Below are positions 117 through 3,797 of a stretch of 33,722 nt of DNA, piece by piece. Position numbers and translations under genes: made by a program. Where the stretch lies: IMG/VR virus record IMGVR_UViG_3300031788_000068. The stretch is one strand, 5' to 3'. Positions within the stretch are counted from its first letter, which is position 1. Each line of letters opens with the position of its first letter. Under the pieces are notes generated by a model. That model did not search any database, was not told where the DNA came from, and saw nothing but the letters and a program-made list of their open reading frames with translations. The DNA comes from a virus.

Positions 117-152
117 TGAATACTTTGTCTCGATAAAGAAGCGATCAAATTG

Positions 153-160
153 GATAAATA
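153..160 (+). promoter_or_regulatory. Late-promoter-like word GATAAATA, immediately upstream of the ADP-ribosyltransferase ATG (a leaderless arrangement).
   Basis: The sequence ggATAAATAGACAatg at 153-167 shares TAAATAGACA with the element at 13511-13520. The T4 late promoter is TATAAATA. The gap to the ATG is only 4 nt. Confidence 0.3.
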
Positions 161-164
161 GACA

Positions 165-800
165 ATGCGCCATGACATCAGACACTGGATCACCCTGTGT
201 GAAACCGTTCCAGGACGGGGCTATAATGAAATCCTCTATCATGGCACCAATGAAGACTTTGCCGATTTCCAAATCAGTGGCAGCAAAATTCCGGCCCTGG
301 GCTATGGCTATTATTTCACACCGTCATTGGTCAAGGCAAAGCAATACGGCAGGCTGATCATGACGGTTCGCGTCAGATGCGCCAATTTGCTGGATTGGAA
401 CCATCTGACGGACACCGACCGGCAGCGGATCATCGCGGATATAACACTCCAAGTCCCGGCTGACAAGATTGCCGGATATGGCGGGGTGGCTGAAAAAGTG
501 TTTCCGCCCGATCAGATCGAGCAAACCCGCGCGTTCTATCAGGCAAAGCGCGACGAAACCCAAAACCTGTATCACGACCGTGCCAAAGCCAAGCTGTCGC
601 AAACCGACGACGGCAACTTCGTGGTCTCCTGGATGGAGCCCTCCTTGCACAATGCCAGCGATCACGACCTGTTGGCTTTGGCTGAAGTCTATCACAATGA
701 TCTGGCCCGCGACCTGGGATATGATGGCGCCAAATTCGGCGATGAGGTCGTGGTGTTCGCCGCCGATCAAATTACGATTCTGGGCAAAACCCGCCACTGA
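165..800 (+). CDS. H-Y-E class (PARP / diphtheria-toxin fold) ADP-ribosyltransferase-like protein, 211 aa.
   Basis: 'ILYHGTNEDFADF...GYGYYFTPSLVKAKQY' aligns with the PARP catalytic core 'LLWHGSRTTNFAGI...GKGIYFADMVSKSANY' (His26, Tyr49/Tyr50). A candidate catalytic Glu lies in 'GDEVVVFAAD' near the C-terminus. No signal peptide is present. Confidence 0.45.
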   Translation: MRHDIRHWITLCETVPGRGYNEILYHGTNEDFADFQISGSKIPALGYGYYFTPSLVKAKQYGRLIMTVRVRCANLLDWNHLTDTDRQRIIADITLQVPADKIAGYGGVAEKVFPPDQIEQTRAFYQAKRDETQNLYHDRAKAKLSQTDDGNFVVSWMEPSLHNASDHDLLALAEVYHNDLARDLGYDGAKFGDEVVVFAADQITILGKTRH

Positions 801-1256
801 TCATTTGATCGCTCGCTTCGCCCGCACCGTGCCGGTCTCCTTCAGTCGCAGCCGATTGTCTTCCGCGTCGGCGAGATCGAATTGCAGCATGGTCCGTTCT
901 GCCTCGGCGCGCCCGTTGACGCAAATCCACAGCATGTATTTCGCCTTGGCGCCATTGTGGATCAGACGCGGGTGCATTCCGGCTGGCACTAATCGTCGCG
1001 GGGCCGCTAACAAATATGTCGGGCTGTCGAGATCGCGATAGCGGCCCTCCAAATAACCCAAGCTGATTATCGGACCATGGCGCACGATGTGGGTGATCGC
1101 ACTGCTGATGACCAGCGCACTGCGCCGCCCTTGATACAAGGTCACATCCGCCAGCAACAGCAACTTGTCGATATCCGGCAGGGAACTGACCGGATGGGAA
1201 TCGAACGTGGCGGGTTGCTCAGTCACCGGCCGAAACTGGTATTGGTAATCGCTCAT
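801..1256 (-). CDS. Hypothetical protein, 151 aa. It is convergent with the ART gene and abuts it with zero spacing.
   Basis: The ATG at 1256 is preceded on the minus strand by GGAGAGGcatcATG. No recognisable catalytic motif was found. The local motif is 'HPRLIHNGAKAKYMLWICVNG'. Confidence 0.5.
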   Translation of the reverse strand: MSDYQYQFRPVTEQPATFDSHPVSSLPDIDKLLLLADVTLYQGRRSALVISSAITHIVRHGPIISLGYLEGRYRDLDSPTYLLAAPRRLVPAGMHPRLIHNGAKAKYMLWICVNGRAEAERTMLQFDLADAEDNRLRLKETGTVRAKRAIK

Positions 1257-1494
1257 GATGCCTCTCCGCGCTCGGGGTGTGCAACTCTAGTCAAACAACG
1301 CGGCGATGCCAACCTCAAACCGGCTGTCGGGAACCACCAATTTCCCACCAAACAAATCCTTGATTGACGATTTTTTACAATTCGGCCATCGTTTTCGGCG
1401 AAACACCGGGAGGCCTGTCGATGCCGCGATGATGTTTACACCAGCGATTCACCAACTATTTACGAAACCGCGATCAGTGTATGGGGAATAAAGA

Positions 1495-2385
1495 ATGGAT
1501 CAGTCACCTGCGCCAAGTTGGCGCGTGACCTTAAATATGGCACGCACCAAACTAGCAACAAGCCTGCGACAAGTGATTTTAGGGGCAGGCCAACGCAAAC
1601 TCGTCGGCCTTCTCATCGCCACCGGGATTTCGGCGGCATGCCTGACGGTCCAGGACACGACCCTGCTCGGCATCATGCTGGCGGTCACACTCGCATCCGC
1701 CGTCTCCAGTATTGCCGGGTTCGCCTTCTCAGCCGTGTGCGGCGCAATTTTGTTCCATATCGAAAACGATCAGGTTCGCGTGGTGGAACTGATGATCACC
1801 TGTAGTATCGCCAATCAGATCGCCATGACCTGGGCGATGCGCGAGGCGATCCGGTGGCACGAATTGCTGGTTTACCTCATCGGCGGAGTATTTGGATTGT
1901 CGTTCGGGATGTGGCTTTTGCTGTACGCGGATCATAATCTGTATAAACAAACCTTTGGCACGTTTTTGCTGGTTTATGGGGTGTATATGCTGGTGCGTCG
2001 GCCGGTTGTGTGGCGCTGGCAGCATCCCGTGCTGGATTTCGGCGTCGGCTGCCTGGGCGGGATCACCGGCGGCGCTGCGGCGTTTCCGGGCGCCTTCGTC
2101 ACGATCTGGTCTGGCATGAAAGGCTGGGATAAGAATCGGCAGCGCGGCCTGATCCAGCCATTCATCCTGATCATGCAGATTATCGCCATTGTGGCGATCA
2201 GCCTCGCCCACCGCGAGCCGAGCGCAGCAAGCGTCGGCTTTGATCCGAACGACTTGTTTTTCATTCCGGCATCCCTGTTGGGAACCTCATTCGGCATGGC
2301 ATTGTATCAACGATTGTCAGATCACCAATTTTCCCGTGCGGTCAACTGCCTATTGGTGGTGTCAGGACTGGGGTTCCTGCTCTGA
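1495..2385 (+). CDS. TSUP (TauE/SafE) family membrane permease, 296 aa.
   Basis: The sequence is hydrophobic throughout, with about 8 predicted helices. The Gly-rich TSUP signature 'DFGVGCLGGITGGAAAFPGAFVTIW' is present. The RBS is GGGGAATAAAGAatg. Confidence 0.7.
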   Translation: MDQSPAPSWRVTLNMARTKLATSLRQVILGAGQRKLVGLLIATGISAACLTVQDTTLLGIMLAVTLASAVSSIAGFAFSAVCGAILFHIENDQVRVVELMITCSIANQIAMTWAMREAIRWHELLVYLIGGVFGLSFGMWLLLYADHNLYKQTFGTFLLVYGVYMLVRRPVVWRWQHPVLDFGVGCLGGITGGAAAFPGAFVTIWSGMKGWDKNRQRGLIQPFILIMQIIAIVAISLAHREPSAASVGFDPNDLFFIPASLLGTSFGMALYQRLSDHQFSRAVNCLLVVSGLGFLL

Positions 2386-2395
2386 ACAAAGTCGC

Positions 2396-2568: not shown

Positions 2569-2790
2569 ATGACGCCAGACCAATTGGCTGAGGCGAGACG
2601 CGCGGCGATCGAGAACATTCGGCCCCACGTCTCGGCCTGGATCGCGTTATTGCAAACCTACATGGACAGTTTGCCCGCAACGAGCGGCGGTCTGATCGAT
2701 GATGACGAAGCAGCGCGCAGCTATGCCCAACACGAACTGCGCGCCATGCAACGGGACTTGGGCGCCCTGCTGGCGATCCCGCGCGACTAA
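2569..2790 (+). CDS. Hypothetical small acidic protein, 73 aa.
   Basis: A strong RBS, ATAGGAGGaaccgATG, is present. The ORF is complete. Confidence 0.6.
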   Translation: MTPDQLAEARRAAIENIRPHVSAWIALLQTYMDSLPATSGGLIDDDEAARSYAQHELRAMQRDLGALLAIPRD

Positions 2791-2921
2791 ACCGGTGTCT
2801 TGGTCGCAATATAGGTGCCGATCTTGGCCCAGACGTCGAGAATTGTGCGGCTGAGGACTGGCACCGGAAAGAGCACCGCAAGTGCATAGCCACACAGCCC
2901 GTAAAACAGGATACTCAACAT
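2787..2921 (-). CDS. Small single-pass membrane protein, 44 aa (MLSILFYGLCGYALAVLFPVPVLSRTILDVWAKIGTYIATKTPV). It is below the size cutoff of the ORF track.
   Basis: The minus-strand context reads CTAAATACCgtggcgatttttAAGGGAtgatgtcATG, giving a late-promoter-like word, an RBS and an ATG at the same spacing as seen for other late genes in this window. The core is hydrophobic. It overlaps the convergent 2569..2790 gene by 4 nt. Confidence 0.35.
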   Translation of the reverse strand: MLSILFYGLCGYALAVLFPVPVLSRTILDVWAKIGTYIATKTPV

Positions 2922-2949
2922 GACATCATCCCTTAAAAATCGCCACGGT

Positions 2950-2956
2950 ATTTAGA
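2950..2956 (-). promoter_or_regulatory. Late-promoter-like CTAAATA on the minus strand (plus-strand ggTATTTAG).
   Basis: Same word as at 6722, 13510, 15171 and 15995. It is followed 28 nt later by the ATG of the 44-aa ORF. Confidence 0.3.
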
Positions 2957-2991
2957 GAACCGTCATGTTGGATTGGTTGAAAGGAAAGTTC

Positions 2992-3252
2992 ATGGCGAAG
3001 AAACCGCAAGAAATCCGCCTGTTGGCTATGCGCTTGGCGGACATGGTGTGGGTCCATCCGAAGATGGACCGAAGCCATGTGTGCACCAAATGCGGCGCGC
3101 CGGTCGGCCTCTATCCGTCCGGCCAAGCCGTGCTGAAACGTTACAAGGATGTCGAAATCGTCTGCCATATCTGTGTGCCGCTTACACCAACCTATGCTCC
3201 GGCGCCGGGATGGGTGGACGAATTGTTCCAGTCGGTGCCGCGCGAGCCTTAA
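2992..3252 (+). CDS. Small Zn-ribbon-like protein, 86 aa (CxxC...CxxC).
   Basis: The start is placed at the ATG at 2992, which has the RBS AAAGGAAAGttcATG. The track's 2965 start lacks an RBS. Two Cys pairs are present, 'CTKCGAP' and 'CHIC'. Confidence 0.5.
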   Translation: MAKKPQEIRLLAMRLADMVWVHPKMDRSHVCTKCGAPVGLYPSGQAVLKRYKDVEIVCHICVPLTPTYAPAPGWVDELFQSVPREP

Positions 3253-3779
3253 TAGCCCATGCGCAACAGCAAACTCTTCATCGCCGCAATCGAGGCCTGT
3301 GAGCGCACCCCATCCGGCGGATTGACCCGTTGCATCTCACTGTCCCGGAAATCCGCCACGATTTTCACCAAATCACCCGACAGAGCAAAATACTCATCGA
3401 TCAGTTGGATGAACATCTCATTCGGCATCAGGATCGGCCGGATCGCCGCGACATGATCGAACGCTGTCTCAGAGTCCATGCCATGCTGGATCAATACCCC
3501 GATGGCGATCGCCGTGCTGCGGCTCATGCCCGCATAACAATGCACCAGCAAACGATCGTCGGCGGTTAGCTTGGCGGTGAATTCGAAGACCTGTTCCAGA
3601 TGCGCCCGCGCCGGATGGATATGCCCCTCCATCGGCCGGGGAATGTCACTCACCTCGATAAACAGATGGTTGCCCGGTAGCGTCTCCATCCCGTTCAGGA
3701 CACTCAGCACATGGGTCGGCTGCCACCGCGCAATGACGTGCTGAAGTTCCTCGTAGCCGCAAATTTTCAATTCAAACAC
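3249..3779 (-). CDS. Dual-specificity / protein-tyrosine phosphatase (CX5R P-loop), 176 aa.
   Basis: The signature is 'VHCYAGMSRSTAIAIGVL', which is HC(X5)R followed by S (Cys81 at 3537-3539, Arg87). The start is GTG at 3779, preceded by GGATGGGAAtagttt. The gene is 18 nt downstream of, and on the same strand as, the gp55-like gene. Confidence 0.75.
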   Translation of the reverse strand: MFELKICGYEELQHVIARWQPTHVLSVLNGMETLPGNHLFIEVSDIPRPMEGHIHPARAHLEQVFEFTAKLTADDRLLVHCYAGMSRSTAIAIGVLIQHGMDSETAFDHVAAIRPILMPNEMFIQLIDEYFALSGDLVKIVADFRDSEMQRVNPPDGVRSQASIAAMKSLLLRMGY

Positions 3780-3797
3780 AAACTATTCCCATCCTGG

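Follow-up and report, generated by a model that had tools for sequence, protein, structure and literature searches.

The viral stretch IMGVR_UViG_3300031788_000068 from IMG/VR (33,722 nt; the whole stretch is hereafter called the window) carries an accessory island at positions 118-3797, exactly bounded by the start of a gp47/SbcD-like gene at 117 and the stop of a gp55-like gene at 3798. The island fits seven open reading frames (ORFs) on both strands into ~3.7 kb (3.68 kb) between these two conserved core genes. We consider it reasonably likely that it is a mosaic and neither a single operon nor a functional module; it would then be a hyperplastic region at the gp55-gp47 junction made up of seven separately acquired dispensable genes. 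An earlier interpretation made from the letters alone (the sequence-only reading) had described an accessory island of mixed orientation with convergent overlaps in this slot, a description supported by the seven ORFs and by the variation of the slot among relatives. The ORFs, designated A to G, are as follows, with the supporting evidence in brackets.

165-800, plus strand: A, an ART-PolyVal ADP-ribosyltransferase (ART) of 211 aa (PF18760 match)
801-1256, minus strand: B, a 151-aa member of a conserved uncharacterised family (homologues, confident predicted structure)
1495-2385, plus strand: C, a full-length TSUP/TauE permease of 296 aa (PF01925 match)
2569-2790, plus strand: D, a 73-aa ORFan with an AGGAGG ribosome-binding site (coding score)
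2787-2921, minus strand: E, a 44-aa ORFan with one predicted transmembrane helix (coding score, hydropathy)
2965-3252, plus strand: F, a 95-aa ORFan (86 aa if the start is at 2992) with CxxC...CxxC, a putative zinc ribbon (coding score)
3249-3779, minus strand: G, a 176-aa Cys-based dual-specificity phosphatase (DSPc match)

Four of these ORFs lie on the plus strand and three on the minus strand, forming three convergent pairs: A/B, which adjoin directly, and D/E and F/G, each with a 4-bp overlap. With a codon-usage score trained on four long structural genes found in the window, each of the seven scores positive when read in its own frame and negative in either of the remaining two, and overlapping alternative ORFs in the island score about zero or below. 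The individual values include +0.295 for A, +0.218 for D (negative out of frame), +0.267 for E and +0.117 for F, the weakest. Four ORFs (A, B, C and G) have family support, and D, E and F are supported by coding statistics and gene calls, D being called as a gene in all contigs. Both the codon scores and the GC content at third codon positions (GC3) of all seven ORFs match those of the phage structural genes; the best reading is that the island genes have had time to take on phage composition.

The gp55-gp47 junction is a long-standing variable site with syntenic flanks. Its contents in the other phages compared are given below, where L followed by a number denotes a fetched contig or locus.

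PA5oct: empty; 11 bp separate the sigma gene from the SbcD gene, which is followed by gp46
IMG/VR L012: empty, 87 bp; gp47 is 58% identical and gp55 has the same two inteins
IMG/VR L015: empty; gp55 and gp47 are adjacent
Phosso: a glycosyltransferase gene and a 98-aa gene
IMG/VR L013/L014: ~6.1 kb including an HNH protein; nothing is homologous to the island
T4 (NC_000866): seven genes, a-gt.5, a-gt.4, a-gt.3, a-gt.2, mobB, a-gt and 47.1

The flanks are thus kept around a slot that is empty or holds two genes, 6.1 kb or seven other genes, and this synteny comparison bears out the variability that had been proposed for the region. The T4 slot had been described as holding only alpha-gt, which is incorrect given the seven genes in NC_000866. 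Read by eye, the L012 spacer shares no sequence with the spacers of the window.

Outside the slot, no more than one homologue is found at a time: those of A, B, C and G lie in unrelated contexts, whether bacterial, plasmid or viral. When the island proteins were compared with 113 fetched loci, none outside the phage was found to hold two or more of them, and no fetched bacterial chromosome carries the gene set. In addition, none of the seven proteins matches the anti-phage defence models of PADLOC. This lack of co-occurrence, together with the absence of PADLOC matches, suggests a mosaic and not a coherent takeover module. A single transcript is also impossible with genes on both strands. The genes would be dispensable in the mosaic reading, and a natural variant speaks for this: JGI 3300045771 (L008:12141, corresponding to window 2305-2382) has cleanly lost 78 bp in frame, and with them the last 26 residues of C, including its last helix and three invariant positions, while the rest of the 7.1 kb compared is 100% identical.

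The sequence-only reading had taken the whole set for one host-takeover or anti-defence module. On such a view, permease, ART, phosphatase and small proteins would act jointly early in infection, reprogramming or disarming the host. ART-PolyVal domains are known from polyvalent proteins of phages and conjugative elements and have been proposed to counter host defences, and the T4 ARTs Alt, ModA and ModB are NAD+-dependent modifiers of host proteins that serve takeover. This general knowledge speaks for the module, as do the presence of two genes from protein- or nucleic-acid-modifying families, the tight gene packing with overlapping stops and an S-AdoMet-lyase-like gene 5 kb upstream in the same phage. 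Takeover or anti-defence roles of the ART and of the phosphatase individually are plausible. A joint module is nevertheless unlikely in our estimate and the proposal is not upheld, with homologues found singly in unrelated contexts, no PADLOC match, three convergent pairs that rule out one transcript, a structural-gene motif before E that suggests late and not early expression, and a permease that is truncated in one natural variant.

Less probable again is a single mobile cassette that entered the gp55-gp47 junction as a whole by homing, transposition or recombination. Selfish elements do lie nearby, including two inteins in gp55, an intein in the gp47 of L013 and HNH genes in the slots of L013 and T4 (mobB), and L012, the closest relative with both inteins, has an empty slot. 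However, searches of the island found no recombinase, integrase, transposase or endonuclease domain, no flanking terminal repeats, direct or inverted, and no tRNA, Rfam family or other RNA element. Its cargo also differs in affinity (C with Acetobacteraceae, G with Rhizobiaceae-type plasmids, B scattered and A with almost no relatives), and the uniformly phage-like composition argues against a recent single insertion.

An assembly artefact, or bacterial DNA misjoined to phage DNA, can be dismissed almost entirely: the permease and phosphatase look bacterial and megablast of window positions 1-8000 against phage records found no match, but at both ends the junctions are identical across independent assemblies from two pipelines and many samples, island codon usage is that of the phage genes, and the flanking synteny is that of PA5oct. 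The island was found in at least 12 fetched contigs from separate ENA and JGI samples with 99.9-100% identity, always between gp47 and gp55, and dozens of recorded contigs encode precisely its permease and ART proteins, with the longest permease-bearing contig reaching 259 kb. A metagenome scan with gp47 added only 3 loci. Recurrence across samples and synteny of the flanks with PA5oct make a chimera very unlikely. The source is an uncultured jumbo phage with a PA5oct-like gene order. Five island proteins were searched against 50,697 deposited phage genomes and had no detectable relative there.

Several points weigh against the mosaic reading. The three small ORFs D, E and F are without homologues, and F has a weak coding score. 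The ART call comes from a Pfam score 0.3 bits over threshold plus motif inspection, and the structure model of A failed. The contigs are near-clonal and lack the polymorphism for a selection test. The co-occurrence result covers the fetched loci, and A and B have very few retrievable relatives; a functional link between A and B or between F and G is possible. Finally, a simple pile of morons would not usually show an alternating, convergent layout in which stops overlap.

The permease C matches PF01925 (TauE) with 91 bits against a threshold of 32.6 (1.3e-25) over profile positions 2-235 of 237, which supports the original TSUP/TauE call, and is 55-68% identical to bacterial homologues. It is alignable at the N-terminus and keeps 59 of 59 columns invariant across 26 aligned sequences; these are the phage copy itself and 25 bacterial homologues, and invariant columns are kept in C by definition. 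A later start for C, considered in view of repeat D17 (15 nt, before A and at the C start), was ruled out by the alignment of the N-terminal 14 residues with bacterial homologues. A crude hydropathy scan with a strict threshold gave five strong segments, while the topology of the family is 7-8 transmembrane segments.

By its position in a neighbour-joining tree, C is a host-lineage gene of Acetobacteraceae ancestry: it is sister to the copy of the metagenome-assembled genome Rhodopila sp. SPRUCE_363 (loci L017 and L028) and nested within a 14-member Rhodopila/Acetobacteraceae clade. Its GC3 equals that of the phage genes and its codon usage is phage-like. The Rhodopila SPRUCE_363 permease gene lies between hemH (ferrochelatase) and a class II ribonucleotide reductase gene (L017:6000-7200, L028) and forms a sharp GC trough of 0.55 between flanks of 0.68, the phage having a GC content of 0.567; over 84 bacterial permease loci the median gene-minus-flank GC difference is -0.01. 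This phage-like trough in the sister copy suggests gene exchange between the phage lineage and Rhodopila, and it could be a return from phage to host. The host of the phage is probably a Rhodopila-like member of the Acetobacteraceae in bogs.

The permease had also been called host-like and unusual for a phage, which agrees with the searches: neither tblastn against the 50,697 phage records nor a PHROG search gave a match. A single other viral contig with the C subfamily was found in IMG/VR (L114, IMGVR_UViG_3300045453_000105; 49% identity), where a LysR/TctC/TauE cassette (L114:5203-8702) sits between tape-measure (TMP_3) and tail-tube (Phage_tube_2) genes. In the genome contig collection a scan with the single protein gave no matches and an alignment-based rescan did. 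Among the neighbours of C homologues in 80 bacterial loci none is conserved, the only recurring items being a regulator (18 loci) and spurious high-GC ORFs.

In the infected cell, C would sit in the inner membrane and transport a small anion. Membership of the TSUP family does not predict function (PMC5840216), and TSUP substrates extend to alpha-ketobutyrate (PMC12671195). Because membership does not fix the substrate, several are possible for C, and the candidates would be sulfite, a keto acid or an organosulfonate. Counts of sulfite exporters exist for giant-virus metagenome-assembled genomes (PMC11745019). We put forward tentatively, as a possibility, that C is a working viral TSUP transporter that alters export or import in Acetobacteraceae (for example, of sulfite or organosulfonates in sulfur-poor peat) and that the gene has moved both ways between phage and Rhodopila. 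If this is true, C would be among very few phage-encoded TSUP permeases and would tie an uncultured jumbo phage from bogs concretely to a host.

A had been called a PARP-like ART. Its membership of an ART family and its H-Y-E motif class stand, while the Pfam family is ART-PolyVal and PARP (PF00644) is not among the Pfam matches at E <= 0.1. The match to PF18760 is a marginal pass (31.5 bits, cut-off 31.2, E 3.5e-7), and a match to phrog_21376 (3.6e-7) lies within a polyvalent-protein profile of 1664 positions; A is called as a separate 211-aa gene in every contig and is not part of a polyvalent protein. Motifs of H-Y-E type, YHGT, GYGYYFT and GDEVVVF, were assigned by inspection and are kept in P0122, the only distant homologue (37% identity) among the indexed 5.8 billion proteins. 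For comparison, the PARP motifs are HGS/HGT, YFA and E (PMC7955679). The AlphaFold2 (AF2) model of A, built from a 3-sequence alignment, has a pLDDT of 49.6. Neither profile and sequence searches of the PDB nor the phage-record search gave a meaningful match or a relative. A would be a small NAD+-dependent ADP-ribosyltransferase of the H-Y-E type that modifies a host macromolecule.

The phosphatase call made from the CX5R motif is confirmed by a match of G to DSPc (PF00782; 44 bits, cut-off 33.5, 2.4e-11). The P-loop (HCX5R) is HCYAGMSRS at residues 81-89. In the PDB the catalytic domain of DUSP10 is the best relative (1.4e-8), aligned across the P-loop, and the core resembles DUSP10/19. D45 in EVSDIP, 37 residues before the catalytic Cys, is in a plausible general-acid position and lies outside the aligned PDB stretch. 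G is 32-36% identical to genes annotated as 'protein-tyrosine-phosphatase' on alphaproteobacterial (rhizobial, Methylobacterium) plasmids, homologues that have no conserved context. It has no relative by tblastn in the phage records and no match in an IMG/VR scan, and PHROGs does hold distant dual-specificity phosphatase families. G follows gp55 on the same strand after 18 bp and is therefore likely co-transcribed with it. The enzyme would dephosphorylate a host phospho-substrate.

The family of B comprises at least 82 clusters, with 82 representative homologues (P0123-P0204); B has no match in Pfam or in an alignment scan of IMG/VR. Its AF2 model is confident (pLDDT 91.5). Searches found no solved structural relatives, and B resembles in structure only uncharacterised proteins of Yasminevirus, Catovirus and a marseillevirus. 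The family also supplies the C-terminal domain of a protein of 738 aa, where it is joined to an HExxH peptidase-like region, and occurs in proteins with signal peptides; one member is encoded between fusA and rpsJ in bacterial contig L023. An A/B toxin-immunity pair was considered and rejected, as the retrieved homologues of A and B are found in unrelated contexts and without each other. The B family is common to bacteria, phages and giant viruses; its confident model and lack of solved relatives make it a clean target for work on structure and function.

D, E and F, for which homologues were not found, appear to be lineage-specific small proteins. D has no match in Pfam, PHROG or NCBIfam. E has its hydropathy peak at residues 2-20, consistent with one hydrophobic helix and with the earlier call of a 44-aa membrane peptide, which E would be; it shows no similarity to T4 gp47.1 and the two do not align. 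F carries the cysteine motif CTKCG...CHIC, so the CxxC...CxxC pattern behind the zinc-ribbon call is present, but its best profile match is a sub-threshold zf-LITAF-like hit (E 0.057). Phage and PDB searches with F gave no relatives.

The two flanking genes are as follows.

1..117, minus strand: left flank, the 5' end of a gp47/SbcD-like recombination nuclease gene that leaves the window (translation MDNLFNKAVVFTDSHFGRESNSPVANQDNLAFIDWMLDR)
3798-6632, minus strand: right flank, a gp55-like late sigma factor of 944 aa (phrog_12791 'sigma factor for late transcription', 2.9e-62)

The gp47-like ORF starts at 117 on the minus strand, with a protein beginning MDNLFNKAVVFTDSHFGR. The complete protein, taken from the identical contig L001, has 336 aa and a Metallophos match, and the next gene in L001 encodes a 722-aa gp46-like protein (AAA_23/SMC_N). 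This left flank is syntenic with the SbcD-like gp345 of PA5oct. The order gp55, gp47 and then gp46 is as in PA5oct and T4, and the wider arrangement, with divergent baseplate/structural genes before gp55, is identical in order in PA5oct. The gp55-like gene is split by two LAGLIDADG inteins at ~5085-6119 and ~3996-4970 (LAGLIDADG_3 match and homologue alignment), with limits C172..N516 (+1 Thr) and C555..N879 (+1 Cys), and its extein parts share ~38% identity with PA5oct and with Sinorhizobium phage Phosso. Both inteins are present in L012, only the first in L013 and none in PA5oct, Phosso or L015. The region of the first intein has a 44.5% match in Synechococcus phages B3/B23, and the gp47 homologue of L013 also bears an intein.

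Further from the island, a single 3549-aa ORF lies at window 19841-30490 (plus) within the structural-gene strand. In L007:1-8929, part of the 10 kb that precede the window in this phage, precomputed Pfam matches only give calpain-like Peptidase_C2 and RyR-domain proteins and a weak S-AdoMet-lyase match, possibly an anti-restriction SAMase.

Three candidate expression signals were located within the island.

2391-2435, plus strand: terminator-like hairpin after C (RNA fold, then AUUUUG; inverted repeat I17)
1284..1312, minus strand: sigma-70-like promoter candidate TTGGCA-17-TAGAGT, ~28 nt 5' of the B start (consensus scan)
2948..2955, minus strand: CTAAATAC motif, candidate late-promoter element, 26 nt 5' of the E start (motif count)

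The permease had been credited with its own terminator. A stable hairpin is indeed present 3' of C (dG -18.3 kcal/mol, z -4.0, with 0 of 200 shuffles as stable), but the consensus terminator scan did not call it. Sigma-70-like sites are at chance level, with 7 in the scan versus 5.5 expected. CTAAATAY has 4 matches in the window versus 0.54 expected; three copies on the plus strand (6722-6729, 15171-15178 and 15995-16002) stand 4-18 nt before gene starts in the structural-gene region and on its strand, and a fifth copy in the upstream flank, L007:2969(+), is 25 nt before a gene start. Every copy is in sense orientation, 4-26 nt upstream of a start codon. By analogy with the T4 element TATAAATA, CTAAATAY may, weakly, be proposed as a candidate late-promoter element of this phage. 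Its presence before E would make E a late gene, and E is probably expressed late.

The kind of region described here is known and its contents are rare, leaving current understanding unchanged. Variable slots are where T4-type phages keep niche-specific genes, and the gp55-gp47 junction is used in this way out to PA5oct-like jumbo phages. The island is of modest interest, for a phage-borne TSUP permease with a link to Rhodopila, an orphan H-Y-E ART and a conserved family, B, that resembles no recognised fold. With a host-lineage TSUP permease carried by a jumbo phage of lytic type, peatland viruses would gain a new candidate class of auxiliary metabolic genes, and the sister relationship and shared composition with the Rhodopila gene amount to a testable host prediction.

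Among known systems, the hyperplastic regions of T4-like phages resemble the island in that their content varies from phage to phage. The T4 slot itself has the same flanks and a similar size (3.15 kb with seven genes versus 3.68 kb with seven ORFs here), and both hold small ORFans including a membrane peptide of ~45 aa. In contrast to the T4 slot, the island has no homologue of the T4 cargo and neither a glucosyltransferase nor a homing endonuclease; its genes alternate instead of being co-directional, and it includes a presumably multi-pass permease.

The individual proteins compare with their families in a similar way. C is like the TSUP/TauE-SafE permeases, such as the Cupriavidus TauE sulfite exporter and Neisseria KbuT, in being full-length with all subfamily-invariant residues, and differs in being encoded by a lytic-type jumbo phage with no adjacent catabolic operon that would hint at a substrate. 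G shares the HCX5R(S) P-loop and an aligned catalytic core with the atypical dual-specificity phosphatases (DSPc; DUSP10/19-like), yet unlike these and the alphaproteobacterial protein-tyrosine phosphatases it is phage-borne and directly behind a late sigma gene. A resembles the ART-PolyVal polyvalent proteins in its Pfam and PHROG matches and H-Y-E motifs, whereas it stands alone, has an insertion of ~58 residues relative to the profile and has almost no relatives. The T4 proteins Alt, ModA and ModB belong to the R-S-E clade. Their resemblance to A would be functional only, drawn from established knowledge, and A differs from them in its H-Y-E motifs and matches no such family.

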